Counted from the first letter of the stretch, positions 10,348-64,000 are shown. The stretch is 64,000 bases of DNA from Acidobacteriota bacterium (GCA_040007095.1 JBDTVS010000127.1:18958-82957), one strand, 5' to 3'. Notes: generated from the letters alone by a model not told the origin. Numbers and translations are program-made.

Positions 10348-10353
10348 GAGGGG

Positions 10354-10599
10354 TTGATGGCCGTAGCCGACAAAGTCAAGAGCATCATCGTGGAACAACT
10401 CGGAGTGGACGAGGAAGAGGTTACACCGGACGCGTCGTTCGTGGACGACCTGGGCGCAGACTCGCTCGACACGGTCGAGCTCGTCATGGCGTTCGAGGAG
10501 GAGTTCGGGATCGAGATCCCCGACGAGGATGCTGAAAAAATCACCCGCGTGAAAGAAGCGATCGAATACATCGACGCCCACGCGAAATCCAAAAAGTAG
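10354..10599 (+). CDS. acpP: Acyl carrier protein
   Basis: 81 aa. Phosphopantetheine site [21 protein letters not shown]. Confidence 0.95.
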
Positions 10600-10629
10600 G
10601 CCGCCACACATGGGCGCTTCCGCACGCAT

Positions 10630-11883: not shown

Positions 11884-11890
11884 TCCCGTG

Positions 11891-11999
11891 GTTGGGACCC
11901 GGAAAGAAACAAAGATGCCATCCCGAGCGCCGATGCTTGGTACCTTTGTTTCTTTCCGGGCCCTTACCTGGTGCCTGGGCACCGTAACCTCGTCCCAAC
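11891..11999. repeat. Nested hairpin element downstream of fabF
   Basis: Perfect 17-bp arms CCCGGAAAGAAACAAAG (11898-11914) and CTTTGTTTCTTTCCGGG (11944-11960). Outer pair GTTGGGAC/GTCCCAAC (11891-98 and 11992-99). Confidence 0.8.
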
Positions 12000-12048
12000 G
12001 GCCAGGCGACCCGGCGGTTCGCCCGATGACCAGCGGTCCAGTAACCAC

Positions 12049-12837
12049 ATGAAGATTGCGGTCTGTCTCAAGCACGTTCTCGCACGCGACAGCCAGCCGC
12101 GCCTCGACGACGGCAGAACCTGGATCCGCGAGTCGGACGCATCCTATGAAATGAACGAGCCGGACGCCTATGCGCTCGAGGAGGCGCTGCGGCTCAAAGA
12201 AAAGCGCGGGGGCGAAGTCGTCGTGTGCTCGGCTGGGCCCGCGCGCGTGGCGCAGGTGATTCGTGAAGCGCTGGCTCGTGGCGCCGACCGGGCGATCCAT
12301 GTCGAGGGCGACGCCCTCGACCGTGCCGATGCGTCGGTGGTGGCGGCGGCGCTGGCCGGCGCCATGCGCGATGAGCAGTTCGACCTGATCCTCACCGGCC
12401 TGCAGTCCGACGATCAGGGGCTGGCGCAGACCGGCGTCATCCTCGCGGAGCGTCTCGGGCTCTCCCACGCGACCATTGTCATGGAAGTCGACCTGGCCGA
12501 TCGGCCGGAGGCGGGATCGACGGCGACCGTTCGGGTCAAGCGGGAGCTCGAAGGCGGGTGGTTTCAATGGGTCGCGATGCCGTTGCCGGCGCTGCTGACG
12601 ATTCAAAGCGGGATCAATCAGTTGCGCTATGCGACGCTCAAAGGCATCATGGCGGCGAAGAAGAAGGAAATCCGCAAGGTATCGGCGGCTGCGAACGCGG
12701 CGGCTTCGGCCACGCAGAAGATTGTTGGTCTCTATGTGCCCGAGAAGGCAAAGCAGACCCAGATTATCGGCGGCTCACCCGCCGAGGCGGCCAAAGAACT
12801 GGTGCGCCGGCTGCGCGAGGATGCTCGGGTCATTTGA
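12049..12837 (+). CDS. etfB: Electron transfer flavoprotein beta subunit
   Basis: MKIAVCLKHV start and LRYATLKGIMAAKKKEI recognition-loop region. ATG 12049 inside the longer track ORF. Confidence 0.85.
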   Translation: MKIAVCLKHVLARDSQPRLDDGRTWIRESDASYEMNEPDAYALEEALRLKEKRGGEVVVCSAGPARVAQVIREALARGADRAIHVEGDALDRADASVVAAALAGAMRDEQFDLILTGLQSDDQGLAQTGVILAERLGLSHATIVMEVDLADRPEAGSTATVRVKRELEGGWFQWVAMPLPALLTIQSGINQLRYATLKGIMAAKKKEIRKVSAAANAAASATQKIVGLYVPEKAKQTQIIGGSPAEAAKELVRRLREDARVI

Positions 12838-12852
12838 ACCACGATGGATGGC

Positions 12853-12962
12853 TTTGAACCATAACGATCACCAGGCACACAAAGAAATCTCTGTTCGCGG
12901 TGATTCGCCTGGCAGAGATTCTGTGATCGAGCTTTGTGATCTTTGTGCGCTTTGTGGTTAAC
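12853..12962. repeat. CACAAAG word-repeat palindromic element (etfB-etfA gap)
   Basis: GAACCATAACGATCACCAGGCACACAAAG...GCTTTGTGATCTTTGTGCGCTTTGTGGTTAA. Related copy at 34698-34727. Confidence 0.7.
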
Positions 12963-12985
12963 AGGTTTGTGTCTCTCGTCATCGG

Positions 12986-13960
12986 ATGCCGAACATGATC
13001 TTAGTGGTCGCGGAGCAACGTGGCGGGACTCTGAATCGCGCGAGCTGGGAGACCATCGCCGCGGCGCAGCAGATTGGCGCGGGGACGGACATCGCGGTCG
13101 CGGTCGTCGGCGCCGACGTCGCTGCGGTTGCGGGAGAGCTGGCGGCAGCCGACGTCCGCGAAGTGCTTACGATCGACCATCCCGCCCTCGACCTGTACAC
13201 GTCCGACGGCTACACCGCGGCACTTCAGCAGTTGATTGAGCAGCTCTCGCCGTCCATGGTGCTGCTGCCCCACACCTACCAGACCCGCGACTTTGCACCA
13301 AAGCTGGCGGCTCGTCTCGATCGGGCACTCGTGACCGATGTGACCGGGATCAAGACGGCCGCGGGCGAGTTGGCGTTCGTGCGCCCGATGTTTCAGGGCA
13401 AGCTGACCGCCGACGTCGTGCCGCTTGGGCCGCCGCCGCATCTTGTCACGTGTCAGATTGGCGCCTTCCGCGCGGACCGGGCCGTCAGAGGCCAGTCGAC
13501 TGCGGCGATTCGCGCCATTGCCATCGACCTCGATCGTTCGCAGATACGCCAGCATCCGGAAGCGCCGTTTCAGGAAGCGAAACAAGCGGTCGATCTCTCG
13601 CAGGCGGAGCGGATTGTCTCCGTGGGCCGGGGGATCAAGGGCCAGGAGCATCTCCCGATCGCGCAGGCGCTTGCCGACGCGCTTGGTGCCGAGCTCGCCG
13701 CGTCGCGTCCGATCTGCGATGCGGGCTGGTTGCCGATGGAGCGCCAGGTCGGCAGCTCCGGTCAGACGGTCGCCCCGAAGCTGTACCTCGCGCTCGGGAT
13801 TTCCGGGGCGATCCAGCACCTGGTCGGCATCAAGGGTTCGCATACGATTGTGGCGATCAACAAGGACGCCGATGCGCCGATCTTCGAAGTCGCCGACTAC
13901 GGCATCGTCGGCGACCTGTTCGAAATCGTGCCGGCCCTGCTGGCGGCACTGAAAGCATGA
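12986..13960 (+). CDS. etfA: Electron transfer flavoprotein alpha subunit
   Basis: C-terminal FAD-binding signature [13 protein letters not shown]...[30 protein letters not shown]. Confidence 0.85.
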
Positions 13961-14044
13961 CGACACTCACCACGGAGCGCGCCGGGGCCCGCAGCCTGTG
14001 CAGCTGTGCTCTGGGGGTGCCGCAGTCCTCGCGTTGAGCGTTTC

Positions 14045-15877
14045 ATGGCCACGCTCGTTCTCTGGCTGCTTGTTGTCGTCTTCCTGGGGGTCTTCGCAGC
14101 CCAGGTCGCCGCGCGCGTCCGCCTGATTGCGGCTGCCCCCAATACCTTCGCGCTGGATCGGCTCGGGTTCCGGATTCAACGGGTGCTGCTCGACGTCGTG
14201 CTGCAGCGCGCGACGATCGCCGAGCGTCCGGTCGCCGGCGTTGCGCACGCGCTCGTCTTCTGGGGATTCCTCGCGTTTGGCGGCTACACGGCCGCGGAGT
14301 TTCTCAAGGGTCTGGGCATCGTCGATCTGACGCAGACCGGGTGGTTTGCGCTCTATCGATCGGTGCTGAGCGTCTTTGCGGGAGGCGTGCTCGCCGGCAT
14401 CGTCTACCTGCTGGTTCGGCGCGCCTTGGTCCGCCCTGTTGCGCTGGGCTCGAAGGTGTCGGTGGAATCGATCGTGATCGGTCTGTTCATCGTCATCTTG
14501 ATGACGACGTTTCTGCTCACCTACCGATGGGCGGACGCGAGCGCCGCCGGCCGCGTCAACTGGTGGGTGCACGCAATCGTGATTCTTGCGTTTCTTGCGC
14601 TAATCCCGTCGTCGAAGCATTTCCACCTGTTGCTCTCGCCGATCACCGTATTTCTGCGTTCACCGGTTCTCGGGAACGTGCCCAATCTTGATTTCGAAAA
14701 AGAAGAAGTCGGTCTCGAGACCGTCAAGGATCTCGGCAGCAAGAGCGTCCTGGACGCGCTCACCTGCGTCGAGTGTGGACGCTGCCAGGTGAATTGTCCG
14801 GCGTGGGCGTCCGGCAAGGAGTTGAACCCGAAGCTGATCGTTCTGCAAACGCAGGCGGCGCTGCTCGCCGGGGACCGCGAGAAGAAGCTCGCGGAGGTCT
14901 ACACCGAGAAGGCCCTCTGGCAGTGCACGACCTGCGGCGCCTGCGAGAACCAATGTCCCGTGGGCATCGAGCATCTCCCGATTCTCCTCGGCGCCCGGCG
15001 CGGCCTCGTATCCAATGGCGACGCGCCCGACAGCCTCGGCGGCGTCTACAACCACCTCGAGCGGCGAGGCAATATCTGGGGCCTCGGCTACGATCAACGC
15101 CAGAAATTCGTCGACTCCGCCGCTCTCGAGATATTCGATCCCGCCAGGCACGACGTCCTGGTCTGGCTGGGATGTGCCGGTGCATTCGAAGCCGACTACC
15201 AGAAATCCATGCGATCGCTGTTCGAGATCCTGCGTGGCCGGGGCGTGCGTTTCGGCGTGTTGTCGAAGGAGCGCTGCACCGGCGATCCCGCCAAGCGCAC
15301 CGGGAACGAGTACATGTTCCAGGAACTGGCGACCGGCAACATCGCGGATCTGAAGGCGGCCGGACCGAAGAAGATTCTGACGTCGTGTCCGCATTGCGTG
15401 AAGACCATCGGCGACGACTACCGGCGATTCGGCTACGACGTGGAGATCGTGCACTCGGCGGTGTTTGTCGACGAACTGCTGCGAGATAGTCGGATCGCGA
15501 CCGCCGCCTCGGAGCGCGTGACGTTCCACGACCCGTGCTACCTTGGCCGCTACGCGGGGAAGGTCGACGAGCCGCGCCGACTGCTGATGAGCCGTGGCGC
15601 CGAGATTGCCGAACCGGAGCGCAATCGCGAGAATCCTTTTTGCTGCGGTGCCGGCGGCGGCCTGCTGTTCGCCGACAAGGAAGAAGAGCCTGGCTCCCGC
15701 ATCAGCGATGTCCGGTTTGCACAGCTGCGCGCGACAGGTGCGGACACCGTCGTGACGGCATGTCCGTTCTGTTCGATCATGTTGAAGGGCGCGCACGCCA
15801 GTGCTGGCGCGGAGGGTGGGGAAGTCCGGTTCGTCGACCTGATGACCTACGTCAACGATCGGTTGAACCAGACGTGA
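14045..15877 (+). CDS. Membrane-bound Fe-S oxidoreductase (HdrD/GlpC/DsrK-like, ETF-associated)
   Basis: Hydrophobic multi-helix N-terminus. Two 4Fe-4S motifs (CVECGRCQVNCP, CTTCGACENQCP). Two Cys-rich CCG-type segments (SCPHC, FCCGAGGG, ACPFC). Immediately downstream of etfBA. Confidence 0.8.
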   Translation: MATLVLWLLVVVFLGVFAAQVAARVRLIAAAPNTFALDRLGFRIQRVLLDVVLQRATIAERPVAGVAHALVFWGFLAFGGYTAAEFLKGLGIVDLTQTGWFALYRSVLSVFAGGVLAGIVYLLVRRALVRPVALGSKVSVESIVIGLFIVILMTTFLLTYRWADASAAGRVNWWVHAIVILAFLALIPSSKHFHLLLSPITVFLRSPVLGNVPNLDFEKEEVGLETVKDLGSKSVLDALTCVECGRCQVNCPAWASGKELNPKLIVLQTQAALLAGDREKKLAEVYTEKALWQCTTCGACENQCPVGIEHLPILLGARRGLVSNGDAPDSLGGVYNHLERRGNIWGLGYDQRQKFVDSAALEIFDPARHDVLVWLGCAGAFEADYQKSMRSLFEILRGRGVRFGVLSKERCTGDPAKRTGNEYMFQELATGNIADLKAAGPKKILTSCPHCVKTIGDDYRRFGYDVEIVHSAVFVDELLRDSRIATAASERVTFHDPCYLGRYAGKVDEPRRLLMSRGAEIAEPERNRENPFCCGAGGGLLFADKEEEPGSRISDVRFAQLRATGADTVVTACPFCSIMLKGAHASAGAEGGEVRFVDLMTYVNDRLNQT

Positions 15878-53167: not shown

Positions 53168-55564
53168 GTGCGCCGAAGCCTCTTCCGCTGGGGCTGCGAC
53201 GCTCGTTGCATCTCTTACGTCGTGCAAATCGTTGCTGCCGTCCCGGCCATCGGGCTGATCGCCGGCTCCGCCCTCGGCTACCTCCTTCCTGATCTTCCTT
53301 TCCGAATCGCCGTTGTCCTGCTCATCGCCGTGCTCGTCGCCGGCGTATGGGCGTGGCGTGCTGCGAGCAGCGTCGGCCTTGCGATCGCCGTCGGCACCGG
53401 GTTTTTCATCGGGGCAGCTCTGCTGTCTGCGGCCGCGTGGCGCGACGCGTGGCGGCCGCCTCTACGGATCGCGTTCGAGGATCTCGCGCGACGCGAACGT
53501 AGACTGGCCGCACAGGAAGGCAGGCGGCTGCCTGAAGACGACGAGGCTTTTGCGGTGGTGATGGGCACGCTGGGGACGGACGCCGCAGTCACGCCGACGG
53601 GCGTGTCCCTGAACGTCACGGTCGATGCCATTCAGTCGTACGGGGCCCGCGGAACGAATCAATCCTTTGCGGCGACCACGCCGGTTTCCGGAGGTGTTCA
53701 GGCCACCGTCGCCGGCGCAATCGGCCCCGAGCGTGCCGGCCAATGGCGCGCCGGCCGTCGCGTCCGCCTGCCGATCCAGCTTCATCGTCCGGCCCGGTAT
53801 CTCGATCCCGATGTCCCCGACGGGGAGCGCGCGCTGGCCCGACGCGGGACGACGCTGGTCGGCACCGTGAAAAGCGGAGCGCTGGTCGAGCTGATCGCGC
53901 GGGGATCGTGGGTTGACGAAGCGACCGCCGCGCTTCGCGCCGCGTCGCGACGCGCGATCGGCCAGGCTGTCGGTCCGTGGAGTCTTCGGTCTGCGGCGAT
54001 CGTTGACGCCATCGTGATCGGAGATCGTGCGGGGCTGGACGACGAAGTCCAACGACGGTTGCAGGAAGCAGGCACGTATCACGTGATCGCGATTTCGGGC
54101 GGCAACATCGCGATTCTCGCGGGCCTGATGCTCAGCGCGTTTCGTCTCGCTGGCTTCCTGGGTCGAACGGCGATGCTGGCGGCCATCGCGGTGCTGGTCG
54201 CCTACGATCGGCTCGTCGGCGGCGGGGCATCGGTCGACCGCGCGACACTGACCGCCGTCCTGTATTTTTCGGCGAGGGTGATCGATCAGCGGGGCCCGCC
54301 GCTCAACGCGCTGGGGTTCGTGGCCGTGTGTCTCGTGGCGGCCCGGCCGCTGTCTGTGCTCGACCCCGCGTTCGTGCTCACCTTCGGCGCGACGCTGGCC
54401 ATCGTGTGGATCGCGCCGTCTGTTCGCGCATGGCGAGTCCCGTCCCTGGTTGCGCCCGCGGCATCCATGCTGGCCGCCTCGGCCGCTACAGAGCTGATGT
54501 TGCTGCCCGTCGGCGCGTTGGCATTTGCGCGCGTGACGTTCGCGGGTCTGGTGTTGAACTTCGCAGCGATTCCGCTGATGGCGATCGTGCAGGTGGCAGG
54601 GATGGCGCTCGTACCGGTCTCGCTGGTGTCGACCCGAGCCTCCGGGCTGCTCGGGCGAGTGGCGCATGTCGCGGCGGAGGGCCTGGTCCGCAGTGCTGAG
54701 CTGGTCGAGTATCTGCCGGCCCTTTCCTTTCGTGTCGCTCCGCCCAGCTGGTGGGTCGTCGTCGCCTACTACGCGGCGATTGTCGCGTTGATCTTCTGGT
54801 GGCGGCGCCCGCGTTTACGTGTTGCCGCCCTTGGCGCGGCGGCCGGCGCCGCGATTTGGATCGTCGGCCAGCCATGGGCGTTCGCGGCGGGGCGCGGCGA
54901 CGGTCGGCTGCACCTGACGTTTCTCGACGTCGGGCAGGGCGACGCGGCGTTGATTCGGTTTCCGCGCGGCGCCGCCGTTCTCGTGGACGCCGGCGGGTTG
55001 ACCGGGTCGCGCTTCGACCTCGGCGACCGCGTCGTCGCACCGGTGCTGAGGATTCTGGGGGTGAGGCGGCTCGACGCCGTGGTGTTGACCCACGGCGATC
55101 CCGACCACGTGGGCGGCTTTCCGTCGGTGATTCGCGAGTTTCGGCCCCGTCAGGTGTGGGAGGGCATTGTGGTGCCGCGGTTCGAGCCGCTGCGCGCCCT
55201 GCAGCTCGGGGCCCAGGCGGTTGGCTCGACATGGCTCAATGTCAAAACCGGGGACCGTGCGTTCTTCGACGAGGTGGAGCTCGTGGTACGACATCCGGGC
55301 TTGCCGGACTGGGAGCGGCAGCGAGTCCGAAACGACGATTCGATTGTCATCGAACTCCGATGGCATGACGTCTCGGCGCTGCTGACCGGCGACATCGGCA
55401 GAGCCGTCGAACGCACGTTGTCGGCGGAACTGTCCCGGACCCCGATTCGCATCGTCAAGGTTCCACACCATGGCAGCGGAAATAGAATCTCTGGAAGTGC
55501 TAGCGAACACGGGGTTTGCTATTCGAAGGACGCTACGATTGCAGGGCCACGCTACACCGCATAA
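53168..55564 (+). CDS. comEC: ComEC/Rec2 DNA-uptake channel protein, C-terminus replaced at an insertion junction (probably disrupted)
   Basis: Polytopic competence core. MBL motifs LTHGDPDHVGG and VKVPHHGS. After HHGS (about 55480) the tail GNRISGSASEHGVCYSKDATIAGPRYTA has no ComEC character and the DNA becomes AT-richer. Confidence 0.8.
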   Translation: MRRSLFRWGCDARCISYVVQIVAAVPAIGLIAGSALGYLLPDLPFRIAVVLLIAVLVAGVWAWRAASSVGLAIAVGTGFFIGAALLSAAAWRDAWRPPLRIAFEDLARRERRLAAQEGRRLPEDDEAFAVVMGTLGTDAAVTPTGVSLNVTVDAIQSYGARGTNQSFAATTPVSGGVQATVAGAIGPERAGQWRAGRRVRLPIQLHRPARYLDPDVPDGERALARRGTTLVGTVKSGALVELIARGSWVDEATAALRAASRRAIGQAVGPWSLRSAAIVDAIVIGDRAGLDDEVQRRLQEAGTYHVIAISGGNIAILAGLMLSAFRLAGFLGRTAMLAAIAVLVAYDRLVGGGASVDRATLTAVLYFSARVIDQRGPPLNALGFVAVCLVAARPLSVLDPAFVLTFGATLAIVWIAPSVRAWRVPSLVAPAASMLAASAATELMLLPVGALAFARVTFAGLVLNFAAIPLMAIVQVAGMALVPVSLVSTRASGLLGRVAHVAAEGLVRSAELVEYLPALSFRVAPPSWWVVVAYYAAIVALIFWWRRPRLRVAALGAAAGAAIWIVGQPWAFAAGRGDGRLHLTFLDVGQGDAALIRFPRGAAVLVDAGGLTGSRFDLGDRVVAPVLRILGVRRLDAVVLTHGDPDHVGGFPSVIREFRPRQVWEGIVVPRFEPLRALQLGAQAVGSTWLNVKTGDRAFFDEVELVVRHPGLPDWERQRVRNDDSIVIELRWHDVSALLTGDIGRAVERTLSAELSRTPIRIVKVPHHGSGNRISGSASEHGVCYSKDATIAGPRYTA

Positions 55565-55576
55565 ACACGCATAGTT

Positions 55577-56317
55577 TTGCAAGGTCGCGCGGACCCGATG
55601 GGCACAAAAACAGTCACAATGGATACAATCGCTCTGGCGATGGCCCACAGAAATCGGCTCCCTGAACCGAAGCGCTTTCAATCTGTTGTTGAATGGCAGT
55701 TTCCGCGTGCTCATCGATATTTTGACGACTGTGGCAAATTGATCGCAGTCATCGAGCAGGCATTCCCGGGGCTCATCTGTCAGGGAATGTCGCCGGACGG
55801 ATTTCGCTTCGTGGGCTCGTCGCATGGAATCACCGCCGCACATTTTTACTGGGAGAAGGCCTCCGTTTCGCAGGTTGGCAAGGGTGACGCCGGGCTTGCT
55901 GACGCCACGGTTCGTTTCTGGTCGCTTGTGCAGGCGGGCTTAGGGATTTCAAGCGTTAGTCGACTTGGTCACCGAACCTGGCTCCTGTATGAAACCAACA
56001 CGCAAGCGGATGCGAATCACTGGCTCAGCGGTTTCAGGTTTCTAGCGTTTGATCGCGAGGGAGGGGACGTGCTGGGCACCCCTGACGCTGGCGGCTCGGT
56101 AATACGGACCAAGCTTGAGGTCGGAGGGCGACGCTTGCGGCTTGAGGTGAACGCGGGCACTGCCAGCATCAATCAAAAACAAGTGCACGGCGTATTCGTC
56201 GACGCTGACATTGTGCTTGAGCCGCTGGACTCTACAGAGAATCTGGGCGAATTCGTTTCGTGGAACGGAACGTTCATTCGTGAAAACATCGAACCTTGGT
56301 TTCGGGGAAAGAAATAA
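55577..56317 (+). CDS. Hypothetical protein, TIGR04255-like by my reading
   Basis: 246 aa (TTG 55577; ATG alternatives at 55598 and 55619). N-terminal LPEPKRFQSVVEWQF...IAVIEQAFPGL resembles the uncharacterised TIGR04255 family. First gene inside the junction. Confidence 0.4.
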   Translation: MQGRADPMGTKTVTMDTIALAMAHRNRLPEPKRFQSVVEWQFPRAHRYFDDCGKLIAVIEQAFPGLICQGMSPDGFRFVGSSHGITAAHFYWEKASVSQVGKGDAGLADATVRFWSLVQAGLGISSVSRLGHRTWLLYETNTQADANHWLSGFRFLAFDREGGDVLGTPDAGGSVIRTKLEVGGRRLRLEVNAGTASINQKQVHGVFVDADIVLEPLDSTENLGEFVSWNGTFIRENIEPWFRGKK

Positions 56318-56320
56318 AAG

Positions 56321-56749
56321 ATGGCGAATCAGGGATCGGCTGCAGTCTTCAATTTTCCACGGCGTGACACTTCCGCTCCATCCGACGTGTCCGCGCCTGT
56401 TTCGTCGCCCACAAGGTTGACCGGCGCAACCGCGCCGGACTTTCAGCCGACGGTGGCGAGCCAGTCGAGCGCCGCCCGGCCCGTTCAACTGGCAACGATC
56501 CAGAATCTCGGGAACGGTCATGTTTTGGTTCATCCGCTATACGTGAGCATCGATCAGTCCGGTGATGAATGGTTTGCGATGTCGCACGACTTGGGTTTGG
56601 TGGGTCGCGGAGAATCGGATCTCGATGCGATCGACGACCTGCGCGCTAGCATTCGAGAGTTATGGGAATCGCTCACCGAAATGCGGGACAACCTCGGACC
56701 ACTGCTTCGTGACCAGCTCAGATTTCTCGAGCGACTTTCGGGTGTGTGA
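56321..56749 (+). CDS. HicB/UPF0150-fold antitoxin-like protein with disordered N-terminus
   Basis: Starts 3 nt after the upstream stop. Low-complexity S/P/A N-terminus, then VSIDQSGDEWFAMSHDLGLVGRGESDLDAIDDLRASIRELWESL. Confidence 0.5.
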   Translation: MANQGSAAVFNFPRRDTSAPSDVSAPVSSPTRLTGATAPDFQPTVASQSSAARPVQLATIQNLGNGHVLVHPLYVSIDQSGDEWFAMSHDLGLVGRGESDLDAIDDLRASIRELWESLTEMRDNLGPLLRDQLRFLERLSGV

Positions 56750-56752
56750 TCA

Positions 56753-57034
56753 GTGCCGCTGACCGTCCGGGAGTTCGAGATAGTCATCGGCAAACTGCAC
56801 ATGGTGGCGCGCGAAAGTAAACACAGGTTTGTCTGGCTAGAGCACGAGGGGAAGAAGATCCTTTACACGGAGCGCTCGCACGGTCGAGGCGATATCGGTC
56901 GCGTCGAACACGCCATCCGGCGGCAGCTTAAGGTGAACTCTGCCCAGTTTCGTGATCTCGTCAACTGTCCAATGACGAGAGAGTTGTACATCGAACATCT
57001 GAAGAAGATCGGCGCGATCGACGCCGACAACTGA
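56753..57034 (+). CDS. HicA/YcfA-like putative toxin
   Basis: GTG start 3 nt after the upstream stop. 93 aa. FEIVIGKLHMVARESKHRFVWLEHEGKKILYTERSHGRGDIGRVEHAIRRQLKV matches the HicA layout but lacks the canonical GSH. Confidence 0.4.
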   Translation: MPLTVREFEIVIGKLHMVARESKHRFVWLEHEGKKILYTERSHGRGDIGRVEHAIRRQLKVNSAQFRDLVNCPMTRELYIEHLKKIGAIDADN

Positions 57035-57141
57035 GTAACGCTCCTCAAATTTCGACGGCTAGGGTAGCTCCCGAAGAGTCGGTCTCCGTCCGACCTGCCG
57101 TCGATTCCTCCTACCCCACGGAGCTGCTTACGGAGGGCAGG

Positions 57142-57786
57142 ATGCCAAGTGGTCACGACGAACGTAAGCGTGCTGGGTCCGGCGAGTACGTCTTTGTCGG
57201 CACCAACGCGGTGGTCCGCACCACATTCCTGAACACCGTCTTCACGCACGCGCGCTTTGTGTTTGATGAGCTCCTCGCTCTGAAGGGTCATGTCTCAACG
57301 GAAGACTTCGACCCACTAACTGGTGAGACTCGAGTGTTGTTGTTGGCCTGGGCCTACAAGTGGGGGCTCACTGATCAATGGGCTTTGGATATGGCTCGGG
57401 CGACGTTGGCATGGCACATCGATAACCCAGATGATCCCCCGAGTTGGTGGCACGGCGTCCGTTCTGACGGCGGTTGGATTCCTACTGCCTGGCCGACTTT
57501 GACCTGGGACCCGATGAAGGATCGTGAGGACGTATTCAAGCGGCAACGGGTGAAGGCCTACATTGCGGAGGTTCGCGCTTTCGCTGAGAGCAACGGCTTC
57601 ATCCGGACACCGCAGAAGCCGCAACTCTTCCAGCACTGCCGATGGGTGGTGCATTACCAGATCGAACGCTTGAGTTACGCAGATATCGAGGCCCGGTACG
57701 GAAATGACGACCACGACCGCATATCAACGATCGAAAAAGCGGTGCGCTCGACGGCTCGTCTCGCCGGGTTGACACTCCGGAAGTAG
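57142..57786 (+). CDS. Hypothetical Trp-rich protein with C-terminal HTH-like segment
   Basis: ATG preceded by GGAGGGCAGG. 214 aa. C-terminal LSYADIEARYG...STIEKAVRSTARLAGLTL resembles a sigma-70 region 4 / LuxR-type HTH. Confidence 0.5.
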   Translation: MPSGHDERKRAGSGEYVFVGTNAVVRTTFLNTVFTHARFVFDELLALKGHVSTEDFDPLTGETRVLLLAWAYKWGLTDQWALDMARATLAWHIDNPDDPPSWWHGVRSDGGWIPTAWPTLTWDPMKDREDVFKRQRVKAYIAEVRAFAESNGFIRTPQKPQLFQHCRWVVHYQIERLSYADIEARYGNDDHDRISTIEKAVRSTARLAGLTLRK

Positions 57787-57844
57787 AACGCGCAGTTTCT
57801 GCTTCCGTGATGTTCTGCTCGCTGTGCGCGAAACTGCACGAATC

Positions 57845-58054
57845 ATGTTGCAGTCACAACAGCCGAACGTCCATGCCCTCCTAATTCGCACTCGCGACGT
57901 CGCAACCATCCTCGGGGTTTCAGAACGGCAAGTTCAGCTTTGGACCCGTGCTGGCCAGCTACATCCGGTGCGAATCCCTGGGATTCGGGCCACTCGGTTC
58001 CAGCGGTCAGAGGTTGAGGCGCTCGCCGCGACGTGGTGCGAAGCCGCGTCGTGA
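57845..58054 (+). CDS. Excisionase/AlpA-family HTH DNA-binding protein
   Basis: LIRTRDVATILGVSERQVQLWTRAGQLHPVRIPGIRATRFQRSEVEAL, an HTH_17/excisionase-like pattern. Alternative start at 57824. Confidence 0.7.
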   Translation: MLQSQQPNVHALLIRTRDVATILGVSERQVQLWTRAGQLHPVRIPGIRATRFQRSEVEALAATWCEAAS

Positions 58055-58479
58055 GCGCTGTTCCTGAGCGCCAACTCCCGAATAACCAAGCTGCAGAACG
58101 CTCGGTTCTCGCGGCGATCCTGATGGACACCAAGGCCATCATCGTCGCGATGGCCATCATCGTCGCGATGGCCATCATCGTCGCCGAGGACTTCTGGAGG
58201 ACGCATCACCAGTGGCTCTTCGCCGCGATGCTTCGAATTCATCATCGCGGGCTGCGGATCGACCTGGTGACGTTGCGTGAAGAGCTGTCCCCGGCGCGAC
58301 TCGACGAGATCGGTTTGGCGTACATCACGGCGCTGATCGATGGTGTGCCGCTCGGAAACGTCGACCAGCACGCGCGGATCGTGAAGTCGATCCGCCGCGA
58401 CGATGCCTCACACGTGAACGACGAACAACCTGAACCACGGGTAGCGGGCGATCCGACGCGGAAGGACGCGGCGGCGTAA
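58051..58479 (+). CDS. DnaB-helicase N-terminal-domain-only protein
   Basis: LPNNQAAERSVLAAILMD...EDFWRTHHQWLFAAMLRIHHRGLRIDLVTLREEL...IGLAYITALIDGVP matches the DnaB N-domain. No helicase domain. GTGA overlap with the upstream gene. Confidence 0.7.
   Translation: MSAVPERQLPNNQAAERSVLAAILMDTKAIIVAMAIIVAMAIIVAEDFWRTHHQWLFAAMLRIHHRGLRIDLVTLREELSPARLDEIGLAYITALIDGVPLGNVDQHARIVKSIRRDDASHVNDEQPEPRVAGDPTRKDAAA
58135..58185 (+). repeat. In-frame 18-bp tandem repeat (2.8 copies) inside the DnaB-N gene
   Basis: GCCATCATCGTCGCGATG twice, followed by GCCATCATCGTCGCC. Encodes AIIVAMAIIVAMAIIVA. Confidence 0.95.
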
Positions 58480-58543
58480 CTAACACATGAACGCCCGCAC
58501 GGGGCAAACCGGCGGGCGTTCTTTTCGATGGGGGACGGCGACG

Positions 58544-58831
58544 ATGGGGAATTGGAATATACGCAATCGAGGCGCTCACGTCAAATTGCGCACAGCGATT
58601 GCGACCTGGCGCGGCAACCTGATTGACCTCGACATCGTCTGCGACGACAAACGGCAGGCGGTCGAGCAGCGCGTTGAAGAACTGCGGCTGGCGGTTCGTG
58701 AACGCGACCGCGCCGCCAAGCACCTCGAATACTTGATCGAGATGCACGACGAGCGCGAGGCCGTCGCCGAATGGTTCGGCCCAGAGATCGCGGCGCAATT
58801 CGTGGTGAGCCTACAAGGCTCCGCGTTATGA
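58544..58831 (+). CDS. Hypothetical protein
   Basis: Track ORF 58487..58831. ATG 58544 has a G-rich upstream stretch. Stop overlaps the primase ATG (ATGA). No recognisable family. Confidence 0.4.
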   Translation: MGNWNIRNRGAHVKLRTAIATWRGNLIDLDIVCDDKRQAVEQRVEELRLAVRERDRAAKHLEYLIEMHDEREAVAEWFGPEIAAQFVVSLQGSAL

Positions 58832-61128
58832 ACGGCGACACGCTGCGAGCGCGGGAATTCATCGCGGCCGTCTTTGACGGCGTTGACGGATTTCTGAACG
58901 TCCGCACGCTGCCACCTGTCGAGCAGACATTTGTGCCGATCGCGGACTTCGATGCCCTGGAGGCGTTTGTGAAGTCACGACGGGATCGCAACGCGTACAT
59001 CGGCGCTGCGGCTCGTGTCAGCAACACCGATGGATCGCTCGCCGGTTGTGGTGCGTTACCGGCGGTGTTCGCGGATCTCGACTTCAAGGACTTCGCGAAT
59101 GAGGGAGAGGCCCGCCGCCAACTCGAGGCTTCACCGTTGGCGCCAAGCGTCGTGATTCAGAGCGGGGGCGGACTCCAGCCCTGGTGGTTACTCAGGGAGC
59201 CGATTGATCTCCAGCGCGAGGCCCCTAACGCTAAGTCGCTCCTTCGGCGAATTGCGATTTCGCTCCATGCCGACATGGCGGCGGCGGAACCCGCACGCAT
59301 CCTGCGGCTACCGAATACGCAGAACTTCAAATACCTGCCACCCAGGCGCGTGAAGGTGGAGGTATTCGAGCCTGGCCGCCGGTACAACCTCGGCGATTTC
59401 GAGGAGTACCTTCCCGAGGCACCACGACCAGTTCCGCCGTCGCGATCTGTCTCGTCACCGACAGATCCAGATCGCCTCGTGCACCGCGCTCGACGCTACC
59501 TCGCGGAAACTCCTGGCGCGATTCAGGGCCAGGGTGGCGATCATCACACGTTCGTTGTCGCCTGCCGCTTGGTTCGCGACTTCGCCCTCGACGACACGAC
59601 CGCGCTCGACATCTTGCGAGACTGGAATCAGCGCTGTGTCCCCCTTTGGTCAGATCGCGAACTCGAGACAAAGATCTCGAACGCGCGAGACTACGGGAAC
59701 GGATCGATCGGTACAAAACTCAATGAATCTCAGTGCCCGGCGTTGACGACAGAGGCAGCGACCCACACGCCCGCACCACCCTCGGCGCCTCGCACGTTCA
59801 ACTTCAGCGACACCGGCAACGCTGAATACTTTGCGTGGCGACATGGCGCTGACGTGCGCTTTGATTTTCGACGCGATCGCCCACTGGTGTGGCAACAAAA
59901 CCGCTGGCGGCCGGACGGAGATGCCGAGATTCGGCGACTCGCGAAGTCGGCGATGCGTCAACGGTTTCGTGACGCGGCGGCGTTGGAGGATCCAGAAGCC
60001 CGCCGGCGTGCCGCGAAGTGGGCCACGGATAGTGAGTCGCGCACGCGGCTTGACTCGTTGCTCTATCTCGCCCAGGCCGAGCCGCCGATCGCGGATCCGG
60101 GTGACGCCTGGGATAAGCAGTCGACGTTACTCAACGCGAGCAACAGCACCGTCGACCTGACTACCGGCGTGTCGCGCCCGTCGCGACGTGAGGACCGGAT
60201 CACCTTGTGCACGGGCGCGGAATATCACCCGAGCGCCCGATCGGAACTATGGGACCACGCGCTCCGCAGCATCCTCGTCGATGACGACGTCATCGACTTT
60301 TTTCAGGTCGCGGTCGGCTATTCGGCGACTGGCGACACGAGCCGGGACTGCTGGTTTCTCGGCTGCGGATCGGGACGCAACGGGAAAGGAACGCTCTTTC
60401 AGCCTATTCGACACGCGCTCGGCGACTACGCCCTCGAACTGCCAGGGTCCGTTTTCGATCTGCGCAGCGAGCGCTCCCCGTACGAGCTCGCGTATCTGCC
60501 TGGGAAGCGCTTCGTGACCTCGTCCGAAGCTGGTGACACGCTCCGCTTGCACCACGATCGGATCAAGCAATTGAGCGGCGGCGACTCGATGAGCGCTGCG
60601 AACAAGTACGAAAAGGCGTTCGAGTTCGAGCCGGACTGCAAACTGTGGTTGGCATGCAACAAACGCCCGCGAGTCACCGATGACACAGCCGCGTTCTGGG
60701 CACGCGTGTTTCTGATCCCGTTCACGCAGTCGTTCGTCGGCAGAGAAGACCGTACGCTCCGTCCCGCGCTCGTCCAAGACCGCCGGCACCAAGCGGCCGT
60801 GCTGGCCTGGATTGTCCGAGGCGCCGTGCGCTATCACGCTGAAGGTCTGGAACCACCCGCGAGTATTCGGGCGGCGACGGCTGCATACCGGGAAGACTCG
60901 GACCCACTCGCCGCGTTCCTTGAAGAAACCTGCGACCTTGAGCCGACGGCCGAAGTCGGCGCGAAGGAGTTGTATGAGCACTACGCGCGGTGGGCCGATG
61001 CGCAGCACTTTAGCCCCAAAGAACGGCTGTCCGCGACGATGTTTGGCCGCCTCATTAGCGGTCGATTTGAACGCGAGCATACGCGGAGCGGGAAGGTCTA
61101 CAAAGGGCTCGCGAGACGGCATGTGTGA
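58828..61128 (+). CDS. Bifunctional primase-polymerase / D5-P4-family SF3 helicase
   Basis: AEP motifs AVFADLDFKD, QSGGGLQPWW, ILRLPNTQNFKY. D5_N-like FSDTGNAEYFAWRHG...WQQNRW. Walker A GCGSGRNGKGT. 766 aa. Confidence 0.85.
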   Translation: MNGDTLRAREFIAAVFDGVDGFLNVRTLPPVEQTFVPIADFDALEAFVKSRRDRNAYIGAAARVSNTDGSLAGCGALPAVFADLDFKDFANEGEARRQLEASPLAPSVVIQSGGGLQPWWLLREPIDLQREAPNAKSLLRRIAISLHADMAAAEPARILRLPNTQNFKYLPPRRVKVEVFEPGRRYNLGDFEEYLPEAPRPVPPSRSVSSPTDPDRLVHRARRYLAETPGAIQGQGGDHHTFVVACRLVRDFALDDTTALDILRDWNQRCVPLWSDRELETKISNARDYGNGSIGTKLNESQCPALTTEAATHTPAPPSAPRTFNFSDTGNAEYFAWRHGADVRFDFRRDRPLVWQQNRWRPDGDAEIRRLAKSAMRQRFRDAAALEDPEARRRAAKWATDSESRTRLDSLLYLAQAEPPIADPGDAWDKQSTLLNASNSTVDLTTGVSRPSRREDRITLCTGAEYHPSARSELWDHALRSILVDDDVIDFFQVAVGYSATGDTSRDCWFLGCGSGRNGKGTLFQPIRHALGDYALELPGSVFDLRSERSPYELAYLPGKRFVTSSEAGDTLRLHHDRIKQLSGGDSMSAANKYEKAFEFEPDCKLWLACNKRPRVTDDTAAFWARVFLIPFTQSFVGREDRTLRPALVQDRRHQAAVLAWIVRGAVRYHAEGLEPPASIRAATAAYREDSDPLAAFLEETCDLEPTAEVGAKELYEHYARWADAQHFSPKERLSATMFGRLISGRFEREHTRSGKVYKGLARRHV

Positions 61129-61239
61129 CGGGTTTACCCCAATGAATGACGGGTTTTTTGATGATTCCCTAAAGTCTCCTATGAACAGCACTTTGAAGAA
61201 GTTTACGGAAACAGCCTCAAACCCGTCACAACCCGTCAC
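61125..61239. repeat. Iteron cluster (candidate origin or packaging site)
   Basis: GTGACGGGTT at 61125-61134 and ATGACGGGTT at 61146-61155. Two tandem inverted copies AACCCGTCAC at 61220-61229 and 61230-61239. Begins at the primase-helicase stop codon. Confidence 0.5.
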
Positions 61240-61610
61240 AACTGGCGACGATGGCGGACGTCGCCCCGAGTATCACGCTTGAGCACGGCTGGGCCTGCCA
61301 AGGCTGCGGTCTCGTGAACGACGAACAGGTTATTGCTGGTAATAACCTGCCACGAGGGCAGCGCTGATGTCGTCGATGGAGTTGTGCTGGCTTGGCACCA
61401 ATCATGCCGATGGGCCGGGGATAAATGAAGGGTCCGTCGATCACCTGGTTACCATTCTGGAGGACTGTGTGTTTTTTGTCGCCAAAACGTGAATCTCTCG
61501 GGCATTAAGGCCAGGTGAGGGCAGCGGCAGTGACACGACATTACGGCGACGACCACGTTACCGACTCCGGTGACGTGCGGGTCGGTCAGTGGAAAGGACG
61601 GGGACAAACT

Positions 61611-62075
61611 GTGGCGGGAAGGCCAGGACGTAGCGGCGGACACAACAAGAAGAGCTTGCTGGAGCTCCAGGCAAGCGGTGGATTTCGAGCCGACAGGCAT
61701 GCGCATTTGCTGCCGAAGTCGCCTGTCGAGCCATCCCCGGCGGTCAATCCGCTCGATCGGTTCCTCCGACGCCGCGAAGGTGTTCAGCCTTTGATTCCAC
61801 CGGCGTCTGAAGCCGGTTGGCAGCCGACACGGGGCGACCTAGCGGCCCTGGGGACACACGGAAAGACGTTCGTCCGCTCGATGATCGTCACCTTCGAGTT
61901 CGCGGCCACCGACGGCCTCGTGCTACTCGAAGCCGGGCATGCGCTCGACGAGGTTACGCGGTGGCGTGAACGCTCGCGCAGAGAGGATGCCCACAACGCT
62001 CAAGGCTCCCGGCTCACGCTCGGCTGGCAGCGACAATTCGCGGCGCTGCTGCAGCAGTTGAAAGGTTCTCGATGA
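61611..62075 (+). CDS. Terminase small subunit-like protein (P27/Terminase_4-like)
   Basis: GTG 61611 chosen. N-terminal GRPGRSGGHNKKSLLELQASGGFRADRH resembles the GRPPK...L.GNPGKR start of P27-family TerS. ATGA coupling to the next ORF. Confidence 0.35.
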   Translation: MAGRPGRSGGHNKKSLLELQASGGFRADRHAHLLPKSPVEPSPAVNPLDRFLRRREGVQPLIPPASEAGWQPTRGDLAALGTHGKTFVRSMIVTFEFAATDGLVLLEAGHALDEVTRWRERSRREDAHNAQGSRLTLGWQRQFAALLQQLKGSR

Positions 62076-62302
62076 TGAAACCTCGACGGGCGCCGGCGGC
62101 GCCACTTTCACGCGGCGTGATCGCTATTTGCCTCGGCGGTTGGTCCGCGCTGGCACTGGAGGACTCAGACTCGGAGGCCTTCGATTTGTTCGAAACCAAC
62201 CTGGCCGGCGTCGCGCATCTGTGGCGCCTGCATGAGGCGTTCTTGTTGAGCGAGGCGGCGCGGCGCGGCATCACGCCGGCCTGGCGGCCCGATCGCACGT
62301 GA
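62072..62302 (+). CDS. Hypothetical small protein
   Basis: 76 aa. ATG overlaps the upstream stop (ATGA). No recognisable family. Confidence 0.35.
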   Translation: MMKPRRAPAAPLSRGVIAICLGGWSALALEDSDSEAFDLFETNLAGVAHLWRLHEAFLLSEAARRGITPAWRPDRT

Positions 62303-62335: not shown

Positions 62336-62851
62336 ATGACGACCCGAACAGAAATCGGTTCACTCCCGGTCGTGGATCAGCACCCCTTGGTGCTGGAGCA
62401 CGGAAGGAAACGTGTGCAATTAGCGACGGCCCTGACGGAGGCGCTCGCGGAGCACGGGCGACTCGTCGATTTTCGAGCACCCCTGAAACAGCAAATAGTC
62501 GCCCAACTCCTCGGCGACGGCGGTGGTCAACCGGGAGATGCGGCGGCGCGATTGACGAAGCTGGAGACCGACATATTAAGCGTCGGCAACCAGGTGGCGT
62601 CCATCAAAGAGGCCCTCGTGATCTGCGATGGGCGCCTGGTCGCAGCCCGCACGCAGGCTGAAACGGAAAGACGCGAGCAGGCGCGCAGTATTGCGCGGGA
62701 GATCGCCGGCCAAATGCAGCCGATCCTTGACAAGCTTTTGGCGCTCAACGAGCAATTGGTCGTCGTCTCGGCGGCGCGCGGCTTCGACGGTCGCTACACG
62801 CCGTTAGATCCTGGGCTGATGCTGGAATTTCGCCGTCAGCTCGGCGATTAA
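62336..62851 (+). CDS. Hypothetical coiled-coil protein
   Basis: Strong RBS (AAGGAGA about 10 nt before the ATG). 171 aa with a helical heptad-like centre. Confidence 0.6.
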   Translation: MTTRTEIGSLPVVDQHPLVLEHGRKRVQLATALTEALAEHGRLVDFRAPLKQQIVAQLLGDGGGQPGDAAARLTKLETDILSVGNQVASIKEALVICDGRLVAARTQAETERREQARSIAREIAGQMQPILDKLLALNEQLVVVSAARGFDGRYTPLDPGLMLEFRRQLGD

Positions 62852-62866
62852 CGAGGTCACAGCCAA

Positions 62867-63346
62867 GTGAACACATCGGCGTTAGTCGACGTTGGCGTGC
62901 GAGTGTTCGCGTTTCACGAGGCCGGTCACGGGTGCGTCGCCACGGCGCGGGGCGTGCAGGTCCGCTGCGTGGCAGTCGACGACGTGGCGGCTCCCGAACT
63001 CGGCCGCGTCGTGACGCGGCAGAAATTCGGCTTGATTCCCTGCGAGGATCTCGTGCTTTTTTTCCTCGCTGGCGGCGTGGCGCAAGAACGATACATGCGG
63101 TCAGTTGGGTTGAGCGATCACGATCATGGTGACGCGACTGATGTCGCCGACGCGCGGATCTTGCTCACCGAGCCTGGTGACCACCGCTATTCAGCCGCTG
63201 TCGATCGAGAGTTGGCGGTATGGCGTCGCCGCACTGAGCTCGCGGTCGCCGAGCACTGGAACTGGATTCACCGCGTGGCCGATCAACTCGTCTCTCGCCG
63301 TTGGTTGAGCGGCGACGACATCGTTCACCTGCGACGAGGAGTGTAA
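62867..63346 (+). CDS. Stand-alone FtsH-type (M41-like) zinc metallopeptidase domain
   Basis: 159 aa. FAFHEAGHGCVA (HExxH), LAGGVAQERY (compare FtsH GGRAAEE), GDATDVADA, and a C-terminal helical part like the FtsH C-terminus. No AAA module. Confidence 0.6.
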   Translation: MNTSALVDVGVRVFAFHEAGHGCVATARGVQVRCVAVDDVAAPELGRVVTRQKFGLIPCEDLVLFFLAGGVAQERYMRSVGLSDHDHGDATDVADARILLTEPGDHRYSAAVDRELAVWRRRTELAVAEHWNWIHRVADQLVSRRWLSGDDIVHLRRGV

Positions 63347-63351
63347 CCGAT

Positions 63352-63795
63352 ATGCCAGACGAAGTTCTCGACGCCAAGGCGTCGACTAAAGAAGTCGTGA
63401 CGCTCGCGCAAGCGAAAGAAAACATGGCGAAGCGCGCCGTGTGGCTCAAGGCAAATGGCCACCGACCGGTCTCGCACGAACAGCTCGACACGATCACAGA
63501 CCAGATTGCTGATGCGATTATCGCCGTCAATGTCTTCGCGCAGTCGATAAACGCGAAGAACATCGAACGCAACGAGAAGATCGCGGCGCTCGAAACAAAG
63601 GTCGCCGAACTCGAGACGCGGACGGCCGTCGACTACGTTGGTATCTGGCTCGAGAAATATTCGTACAGGAAGGGCCAGATCGTAACGCACAAGGGCACGA
63701 TCTGGTTTTGTAGGGTCGACTACACCATGGAGAAGCCTGGGACGTCGACCGACTGGCAACTGATGGTGAAAAACCAGGAGCGGCCCAACCGATGA
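63352..63795 (+). CDS. Hypothetical coiled-coil protein with CBM5/12-like C-terminal motif
   Basis: IERNEKIAALETKVAELETR coiled coil, then YRKGQIVTHKGTIWFCRVDYTMEKPGTSTDWQLMVK. Confidence 0.5.
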   Translation: MPDEVLDAKASTKEVVTLAQAKENMAKRAVWLKANGHRPVSHEQLDTITDQIADAIIAVNVFAQSINAKNIERNEKIAALETKVAELETRTAVDYVGIWLEKYSYRKGQIVTHKGTIWFCRVDYTMEKPGTSTDWQLMVKNQERPNR

Positions 63796-64000
63796 ACATC
63801 GATCAAGCGGTGGCGCAAGTTGCGCGGCAACTCGACGGCATCTGCGCAGCACGGCTCGATGCGTTCGAGCTCTCGCTCATCGAATGCGGCGTCAACCCCA
63901 ATGGTGGCGCCGACGTCTCAGGCCCACCACCTGGTGAGCTGCCCGCCGGCGTCTGTTGGAAACGGCTGCCCTTCGATGAGGCGGTCGCCCTCCAGAGAGC
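63792..64000 (+). CDS. Hypothetical protein, N-terminal part (runs off window)
   Basis: ATGA overlap with the upstream stop. My translation (MNIDQAVAQVARQLDGICAARLDAFELSLIECG...) stays open to position 64000. Confidence 0.4.
   Translation, partial: MNIDQAVAQVARQLDGICAARLDAFELSLIECGVNPNGGADVSGPPPGELPAGVCWKRLPFDEAVALQR

Follow-up and report, generated by a model that had tools for sequence, protein, structure and literature searches.

What kind of element has entered the comEC gene of an uncultured soil Acidobacteriota bacterium, and would it depend on another phage for its transfer? The question arises from a stretch of 64,000 nucleotides of a metagenome-assembled genome (MAG; GCA_040007095.1, JBDTVS010000127.1:18958-82957), hereafter the window, whose right-hand end carries a compact island with replication genes and a small-terminase-like gene. 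An initial annotation, made from the sequence alone, had placed there, at positions 57824-62302, an island resembling a phage satellite of the phage-inducible chromosomal island (PICI) or P4 type. Our analyses recover this feature with other bounds, as it starts at ~55,490, or at 57,052 if its first three genes are a separate piece, and continues past 64,000. Judging from sequence comparisons, it is probably a phage satellite of PICI-like type integrated in the 3' part of comEC, or has derived from such a satellite very recently. This copy would be either a capsid-less PICI-type satellite with its integrase just past the window, or a derivative from which parts have been lost.

The island in comEC and its replication module

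The GC content of the window is 0.65-0.69 up to 55 kb and 0.57-0.64 over 55-64 kb, and the drop, from 0.68-0.69 to 0.57-0.60, falls at the 3' end of comEC. In tblastn comparisons with full-length ComEC proteins, the last 230 aa of the window protein align only to residue ~204-209. The similarity thus ends ~21-26 codons before the stop of the open reading frame (ORF), at ~55,485-55,500, and beyond that endpoint the ComEC proteins of Ralstonia and Xanthomonas run on for 89-135 more codons. Because the similarity stops there and the homologues are longer, we conclude that the island was inserted in comEC at ~55,485-55,500, removing its 3' end; relative to full-length homologues, 65-110 C-terminal codons are missing. 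From this break to position 64,000 there are 14 ORFs on the same strand, with overlapping or near-touching ends, the fourteenth being cut by the window end. All the visible ORFs are intact, and the island measures at least 7-8.5 kb. No tRNA or tmRNA gene was found in the 64-kb window. The features on which the argument turns are the following:

53168-55564, + strand: comEC/rec2, host gene with its 3' end cut by the island (Pfam Competence E 3.7e-46, Lactamase_B E 7.4e-15)
57052-57121, + strand: int-alpA RNA (Rfam RF02996), 5' leader heading the early operon (43.3 bits, E 5.7e-8; Rfam gathering score 35.8)
57142-57786, + strand: g4, 214 aa, first gene after the RNA leader, no family match
57824-58054, + strand: excisionase/AlpA-type helix-turn-helix (HTH) protein (PF12728 HTH_17 E 1.1e-9; phrog_66 'excisionase and transcriptional regulator' E 2.1e-9)
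58033-58479, + strand: stand-alone DnaB N-terminal domain protein, without the helicase part (PF00772 E 2.9e-20; phrog_19 E 9.2e-13)
58487-58831, + strand: g7, 114 aa, no family; its stop overlaps the primase start (ATGA)
58828-61128, + strand: primase/D5-type superfamily 3 (SF3) helicase, the replication initiator (phrog_2478 E 4.9e-99; D5_N E 1.7e-18, DUF5906, Pox_D5)
61124-61240, no strand: predicted origin of replication, iterons and a conserved spacer directly 3' of the primase gene
61326-61349, no strand: perfect 9-bp inverted repeat, CAGGTTATT N6 AATAACCTG, within the 370 bp of non-coding DNA that separate the origin from the TerS-like gene
61611-62075, + strand: divergent P27/HK97-type small terminase (TerS)-like protein, from family-level profiles and predicted fold
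62072-62302, + strand: g10, 76 aa, no convincing family or defence match, putative partner of the TerS-like gene (weak homologues right after the TerS-like gene in related loci L006, E 0.012, and L038, E 0.009)

The order given by the initial annotation, from the xis-type HTH gene through the DnaB N-domain gene, the small ORF without a family, the primase/SF3 helicase and the iterons to the gene at 61611-62075, is real. Its description of the initiator as a prim-pol joined to a D5/P4 helicase holds for the D5 SF3 part; the N-terminal third (first 300 residues) has no match to PF09250 Prim-Pol. This third matches phrog_10514 (E 3.5e-8) and is 44-69% identical to homologues carrying PriCT_1 and AAA_25, with which it aligns, and the initiator is therefore modular. 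The whole protein is 100% identical to NCBI MEP7308204.1, a 'phage/plasmid primase, P4 family'. Upstream, g7 has a weak homologue directly upstream of the primase of L005 (E 2e-4), and the DnaB N-domain gene likely starts at a GTG at 58051, overlapping the xis stop. Within the latter gene lies an 18-nt perfect tandem repeat (58134-58184, 2.8 copies at 100%) encoding (AIIVAM)n, which could reflect slippage, an assembly artefact or a variable linker.

Directly after the primase, the iteron cluster described in the initial annotation is confirmed. The word TGACGGGTT occurs four times in the 64-kb window, twice on each strand, always within the 113 bp of 61126-61238 (chance expectation 0.49; 0 of 100 shuffles reached four). 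Two direct copies 21 nt apart are followed by an AT-richer spacer of ~64 nt and by two inverted copies 10 nt apart. The same design lies right after the primase stop in four related loci (L005, L001, L006 and L007), with a spacer conserved between these and the window (GATTCC..AAAGT ... TTACGGAAACAGC) and with variants of the iteron itself: ACCGGGTT in L001, GGTGGGTT in L006 and TCCGGGTT in L007. Together, these comparisons are strong evidence for a replication origin, the specificity of which would co-vary with that of its initiator. Between the origin and the TerS-like gene, the inverted repeat at 61326-61349 is a candidate operator or packaging site.

The iteron of L005 and L026 is identical to that of the window, and the exact word TGACGGGTT is shared by L005 3602-3730, L026 11347-11381 and window 61118-61246. 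L005 also has the iteron spacing of the window and an alignable spacer. As L005 is a phage contig bearing a large terminase (TerL) gene and L026 a locus in a Vicinamibacterales MAG, phage and island could cross-activate or compete for each other's origins, to judge from these shared words.

The early operon is headed by an RNA that the default filtered Rfam gathering run missed, and which was reached through a blastn match of 57052-57136 to the sequence just after the stop of the serine recombinase of L047. The alignment of this RNA shows a -10-like box ~10 nt upstream and a start codon ~25 nt downstream, indicating that it is a 5' leader. As g4 and the Xis-type gene come after it in the window, it marks the start of the early operon. 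The motif scores 47.7 bits in L001, where it separates the integrase from the gene ahead of alpA, and 39.3 bits in L040, at the left edge of the island, where it is the first island feature past the host gene; in L047 it begins 9 nt past the serine recombinase stop. An exact search of IMG/VR with a 21-base core of the motif gave 104 matches. The int-alpA RNA is described mainly from Proteobacteria, phages and metagenomes, and is found here in an Acidobacteriota MAG. As in the known motif, the window copy exceeds the gathering threshold and is separated by one gene from an AlpA/Xis-type gene downstream; in contrast to the relatives, where the RNA comes just after the integrase, it has no integrase gene directly upstream. 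The g4 gene occupies the position of a 279-aa gene in L001 and of a 231-aa gene in L040, after the same RNA, and may from this position be a regulator, and the place of the window HTH_17 gene is taken in relatives by Phage_AlpA. The conserved 85 nt at 57.05 kb had also been considered as an attachment site (attP) or a tRNA fragment, which was rejected, Rfam identifying them as the int-alpA RNA. Its single-sequence fold is unexceptional (z -1.0), and promoter and terminator scans stayed at background level.

Between comEC and this RNA, where relatives have the left attachment site (attL) or an integrase, the window has three tightly packed genes of low GC without any Pfam, PHROG, NCBIfam or PADLOC match, which may be cargo or a second, tandem piece:

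55598-56317, + strand: g1
56321-56749, + strand: g2
56753-57034, + strand: g3

The TerS-like gene at 61611-62075

For the gene that the initial annotation called small-terminase-like, the lack of any profile similarity to small terminases had been named as a result that would count against a satellite. Such similarity is found at the level of the family, and not for the protein itself. The ORF (a 181-aa hypothetical protein in NCBI, ABJA98_22095) was not matched by tblastn in 50,697 phage records, in the IMG/VR scan or in a sequence-profile search of the PDB. A word-indexed search retrieved only two homologues, and a HMMER search with the resulting three-sequence profile retrieved 392 cluster representatives, mostly of 115-140 aa. 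Among the 108 members scanned, 42 matches to TerS families of PHROG were scored (phrog_1496, 27; phrog_83, 15), and three members match Pfam Terminase_4 (PF05119). In hhalign, the family profile aligns with the Terminase_4 ORF of L001 (probability 83%, E 9.5e-6), and the family hidden Markov model (HMM) matches this ORF at about E 1e-6; hhalign against the TerS of L005 gave 1.3%. In L049, the family HMM matches an ORF that is immediately followed by a long ORF similar to TerL, with which it overlaps.

The predicted structure points in the same direction. An AlphaFold (AF2) model built from the 108-sequence alignment has a predicted local distance difference test (pLDDT) score of 85.9, and the first five ranks of a Foldseek search of the PDB are HK97 TerS (6z6e/8pop; prob 0.98-0.99, target-normalised TM-score 0.55-0.66); the matches in BFVD are mostly small terminases. 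The protein also carries an N-terminal basic segment, AGRPGRSGGHNKK, which we take to resemble the N-termini of P27-family TerS. We accept 61611-62075 as a divergent homologue of the P27/HK97-type TerS, on the strength of family profiles and a modelled fold, and it would act as a terminase subunit. It resembles HK97/P27 TerS (PF05119; 6z6e, 8pop) in its helical fold and through family-level profile links, and differs in its low identity (~16%), in the lack of a direct profile match and in having no neighbouring TerL. Indeed, the next gene is the 76-aa ORF g10, and the genes that follow the TerS-like gene (76, 171, 159, 147 and at least 68 aa) include no TerL, as expected for the TerS of a satellite.

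Related islands and alternative readings

Loci related to the window were reached through the primase (L001, L005, L006 and L008), through the TerS-like family (L038) and, independently, through a capsid family (L040-44 and L045). L001 (primase identity 64%) consists of an integrase, the int-alpA RNA, a 279-aa gene, AlpA, the primase, Terminase_4, a 154-aa gene, insertion sequence (IS) elements and a tRNA. L005, the closest relative (70%), has the primase, two genes, Terminase_4, TerL, a 329-aa gene and a Peptidase_S78 prohead protease. L006 (66%) begins with the primase, a 125-aa gene, a TerS-like gene, a g10-like gene, two small genes and an HK97 capsid gene (phrog_617 E 2.4e-23), after which come small genes, a trypsin-like gene, a large serine recombinase and a tRNA. 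L008 (41%) has a tyrosine integrase, replication genes, a capsid gene (phrog_617 E 1.4e-32; PF05065), g13-like and g14-like genes, then host-like genes and a tRNA, and no match to the TerS-like HMM. In L038, a Toprim/AAA_25 replicase is followed by TerS-like and g10-like genes, a 120-aa gene, the capsid gene, g13-like and g14-like genes and then host-like genes. L040-44 are a single element of ~11 kb on 36 contigs, with the order int-alpA RNA, small genes, TerS-like gene, capsid gene, g13-like gene, small genes, serine recombinase and tRNA; L045 (~11 kb) resembles it, with a tyrosine integrase instead. An integrase was found in L006, L040-44 and L045, each with a tRNA gene within or beside the island.

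L006, L008, L038, L040-44 and L045 form a family of 8-11-kb islands (L008 1999-11725; L040 5300-16533; L045 2184-13227), with a tRNA gene at or near one end in most; in L040 and L045 both edges are visible. As called, the large serine recombinase ORFs overlap at their 3' ends with a tRNA gene on the opposite strand (L006 8492-8565; L040 16461-16533); these ends are probably read-through into the attachment-site tRNA. The small IMG/VR contigs have no terminal repeats.

Searches by tblastn with two TerLs were positive in 55 loci, and in none of L006, L008, L038 and L040-45, nor in the window; likewise, the precomputed Pfam lists of L006, L038 and L040-45 contain no terminase, portal or tail family. 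The relatives that carry the TerS-like family (L006, L038/39, L040-44 and L045) thus lack a recognizable TerL, portal or tail, which favours a satellite over a complete prophage. In the window, as the initial annotation had stated, no homologue of TerL, portal or capsid was found in 62.1-64.0 kb, nor elsewhere, by Pfam and PHROG or by tblastn with two TerLs and three major capsid proteins (MCPs). Tail, holin, portal and head-tail connector genes were also absent from the visible 8.5 kb (Pfam/PHROG and tblastn), where g13 shares only a ~50-aa domain with virion proteins. Downstream of g10, the remaining genes are:

62336-62851, + strand: g11, 171 aa, no convincing family match
62867-63346, + strand: g12, 159 aa, with a HEAGH motif, no convincing family match
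63352-63795, + strand: g13, 147 aa (phrog_5073 E 1.1e-5 and phrog_1289 E 4.7e-4, over the C-terminal ~50 residues only)
63792-64000, + strand: g14, cut by the window end (41% identity to L008 9771-10088 and L038 5192-5494)

The roles considered here for g10-g14 are putative. The M41-like peptidase that the initial annotation saw in g12 is not upheld, the evidence being the HEAGH motif and a Peptidase_M50 match of E 0.016 over 25 residues, with no PDB sequence match; its AF2 model from a single sequence has a pLDDT of 39.6. Neither g11 nor g12 has a homologue in the fetched loci searched. The C-terminal domain of ~50 aa in g13 recurs at the ends of tail-fibre and portal families of PHROG, with a weak match to CBM_5_12 (E 0.006), and g13 homologues come after the capsid gene in L008, L038, L040-44 and L047; g13 may be a head-decoration or attachment domain. 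In L008, L038 and L126, g14 ends the island and host-like genes follow; a metagenome scan with g14 retrieved three loci only, all weak.

Could the visible genes then be the early and replication arm of a complete temperate phage, with the head, tail and lysis genes past 64,000? The source contig (99,419 bp) has up to ~35 kb more sequence, L005 carries TerS, TerL and the prohead protease within 1.9 kb of its primase, and g13 has weak matches to tail-fibre and portal PHROGs. As L005, with the same iterons, sits in a genuine phage module, the replication module alone does not discriminate between a phage and a satellite. Nevertheless, TerL directly follows TerS in L005 and in IMG/VR phage contigs, whereas five small genes other than TerL follow it in the window. 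The TerS-like family never lies beside a TerL in L006, L038, L040-44 and L045, which are whole islands without one; the islands of L008 and L038 end with the g13/g14 pair; and the matches of g13 span only the ~50-aa terminal domain. We consider a complete prophage quite improbable.

The position of the capsid raises another alternative. Where L038, L006, L040 and L045 carry a gene of 120-156 aa and an HK97 major capsid gene, the window has g11 and g12. The main rival to a satellite is a small element that formerly encoded a capsid and is now decayed or immobilised. Such a remnant would have lost the capsid gene and perhaps the integrase and would no longer be mobile. Besides the two unrelated ORFs in the capsid slot of L006, L038, L040-44 and L045, a remnant would account for the lack of a visible integrase, and the island may end just past the window without one, g14 being last in L008, L038 and L126. 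A profile search with the capsid family placed no protein of the source contig among the best 120 of its 180 matches. Decayed copies also exist elsewhere, as in L129, where a capsid gene and a truncated recombinase (10001-14099) remain in a 1.2-Mb contig, showing that capsid-bearing elements persist as remnants too. However, the visible ORFs of the window are all intact, with start and stop codons overlapping or close, the origin has four perfect iterons, and the int-alpA leader scores above the Rfam gathering threshold. Moreover, a capsid gene is not needed by classical PICIs (PMC10085698), the capsid search covers the best 120 of 180 matches, and the right end lies outside the window. A remnant appears unlikely, although less so than the other alternatives.

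The third alternative is an integrative replicon that is never packaged, plasmid-like or a defence island, in which the TerS-like protein would be a DNA-binding regulator only. P4-family primases are common in non-phage islands, and in L002/L003 a methylase and GmrSD lie alongside; TerS proteins themselves bind DNA and are small and helical, and the direct evidence for a TerS is remote here. In a census of 31 genome loci, covering the 97 ORFs of at least 250 aa in the 8 kb that follow the primase, 25 of the 80 families are listed, and among these no terminase, portal or capsid family was matched by two or more ORFs; most ORFs in the listed families are methylases, ParB_N proteins, transposases or host genes, and methylases and ParB_N are the commonest neighbours. 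In many of the L009-L037 genomes (Chloroflexota/Dehalococcoidia), the large ORFs found up to 8 kb downstream of a primase of this family include DNA methylases (10 matches) and ParB_N proteins (6) instead of phage head genes. In contrast, the TerS-like gene is linked in relatives of the window to an HK97 capsid gene (phrog_617 E 1.4e-32; PF05065) and to g13/g14, a virion-related context, its fold matches specifically HK97 TerS, and neither a defence family match nor, with PADLOC, any convincing defence cargo was found in any island ORF. An unpackaged replicon would thus be a poor explanation of the locus, and we give it little credence.

The islands nevertheless have relatives among phages. 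Soil metagenomes contain at least 180 clusters (90% identity) of the capsid family, and capsids at 35-40% identity lie in ordinary TerL-bearing phage contigs; the TerL of L047 matches that of HK97 (6z6d) at E 2e-28. By sequence, the small islands look like reduced derivatives of an HK97-like phage lineage. In L047 (48-1898) and L048 (50-1894), the TerL of ~615 aa has an N-terminal extension of ~110 residues that begins with a basic, TerS-like motif, KGGRPRLSDAEKRRRGT, and may be a TerS-TerL fusion on contigs of ~10 kb.

Several observations weigh against a PICI-like satellite in the window. The closest relative of its primase and origin, L005, is part of a real TerS-TerL-protease phage module, and L047-L049 (capsid identity 50-53%) carry a TerL next to the same capsid family. 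The TerS-like ORF has no Pfam, PHROG or NCBIfam match even at E <= 10, PF05119 included, and the Foldseek E-values of the HK97 TerS matches are only ~0.3. The window copy lacks the capsid gene of its TerS/g13/g14 relatives, which could mean decay. Its left end has no integrase where L001 and L008 have theirs, and the window ends within the fourteenth island gene, leaving the right end, the integrase and the right attachment site (attR) outside. Finally, excision, helper dependence, redirection of packaging by TerS and the position of the integrase are steps that we infer. On the other side, the window copy keeps the TerS-like gene, g10, g13 and g14 in the order of the family. In L040, L045 and L006, 2-4 kb separate the g13 homologue from the integrase downstream, consistent with an integrase beyond 64,000 in the window; none was found in 55.5-64.0 kb by Pfam and PHROG or by tblastn with four integrases/recombinases, the right end being beyond the window. 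What is proposed for the sequence past 64,000 is drawn from these relatives. The preference of the initial annotation for a satellite over a complete prophage thus agrees with the PICI-type gene plan and with the related islands, and less well with the phage module of L005 and a right end that falls outside the window.

Place among known satellites and biological meaning

We compared the island with PICIs as defined by the SatelliteFinder model, under which >99.9% of detected PICIs are in Proteobacteria or Firmicutes (PMC10085698). Classical PICIs such as the Staphylococcus aureus pathogenicity islands (SaPIs) and EcCICFT073 of E. coli share with the window the order of an AlpA/Xis-type regulator, a primase-replicase with an adjacent iteron origin and an orphan TerS, in the window a remote homologue. 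The visible part of the window is likewise devoid of tail, holin, portal and TerL, and the related islands are alike in their size (8-11 kb) and chromosomal integration. Of the components of the model, the regulator is represented by the HTH_17 protein and the int-alpA RNA beside the replication module, and the primase-replicase with adjacent origin by phrog_2478 and the iterons at 61126-61238. The TerS component is reached by the window protein only through remote homology, and no integrase lies in 55.5-64.0 kb of the window, which leaves out the right end. The capsid morphogenesis (cpm) gene is facultative in PICIs and absent from Type B (PMC10085698). No island ORF matches a cpm gene in Pfam or PHROG, and the island further differs from known PICIs in its host phylum, Acidobacteriota, in a TerS missed by standard profiles and in its insertion inside the protein-coding comEC. 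A full-text literature search on phage satellites in Acidobacteria found nothing related.

Capsid-forming PICIs (cfPICIs), with 11 core components, encode TerL, portal, protease and head-tail connectors (PMC10085698). Like them, the relatives L006, L008, L038 and L040-45 encode their own HK97-fold major capsid, in most cases near the TerS homologue; unlike them, they have only the TerS-like gene, the MCP and small genes. The window copy has no capsid gene, and no TerL, portal, major capsid, protease or head-tail adaptor/connector gene was found in the window.

With P4, the window shares a primase fused to a D5-type SF3 helicase, an origin made of repeats and an AlpA-type regulator, whereas the N-terminal primase domain differs. 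The P4-likeness of the initial annotation does not extend beyond the type of primase, as no PHROG or Pfam match to psu, sid, delta or epsilon was found in any island ORF. To our knowledge, P4 has no TerS of its own, whereas the window element has one.

A further comparison is with the metagenomic 'mini' HK97-fold elements, which are 5-12 kb long and have an HK97-fold capsid, RepA/helicase and integrase/excisionase, with no portal or tail; the study describing them reports no terminase or packaging genes (bioRxiv 10.1101/2025.06.18.659913). L008, L038, L040 and L045 are like these elements by gene content rather than by a comparison of families. They differ in that the relatives studied here carry a cryptic TerS (not detected in L008), and the window copy differs in lacking a capsid gene.

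From these comparisons, a cycle can be proposed for the window element as a PICI-like satellite. A leader RNA of the int-alpA class would head an early operon of g4, the Xis/AlpA-type HTH protein, the DnaB N-domain protein, g7 and the primase-helicase. Once induced, the element would be excised by its Xis-type protein together with an integrase encoded beyond the window, and the primase/D5 helicase would recognize its own iterons (2 + 2 inverted TGACGGGTT) and replicate the circle. The HK97/P27-type TerS, with its small partner g10, would then bind the element DNA and pass it to the large terminase of a helper, and the element would be packaged into heads and tails made by that helper.

The wider island family is a more novel lead than the window element itself. 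We advance only tentatively, and as the less probable case, that the window copy is a member of a large family of minimal satellites, spread across soils in the Acidobacteriota and lineages close to them and placed between PICIs and cfPICIs. If so, the only virion-related genes of the family would be a cryptic HK97-type TerS, usually one HK97 capsid gene, g13 and g14, and HK97-like helper phages would supply its members with TerL, portal and tails and share their origin specificity (the window, L026 and L005 all having TGACGGGTT). The window copy would then be a capsid-less derivative sitting in comEC. Should the portal-less 'mini HK97' elements prove to be of the same families, they may carry an undetected TerS and hence be satellites, a reading that would replace that of autonomous or encapsulin-like entities.

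Phage satellites shape gene transfer and phage defence, and a satellite in this locus would extend this lifestyle to the Acidobacteriota, an abundant and hard-to-culture soil phylum. A TerS homologue that escapes profiles would explain why marker-based tools miss such elements, and the TerS-like family, with its 392 representatives, together with the conserved origin would provide search handles for the elements and their helpers in soil metagenomes. Through its insertion in comEC, the element is also tied to natural competence, by which genes can be transferred along a second route. If the comK prophage switch of Listeria is taken as a model, the competence gene might be made whole again when the element excises.

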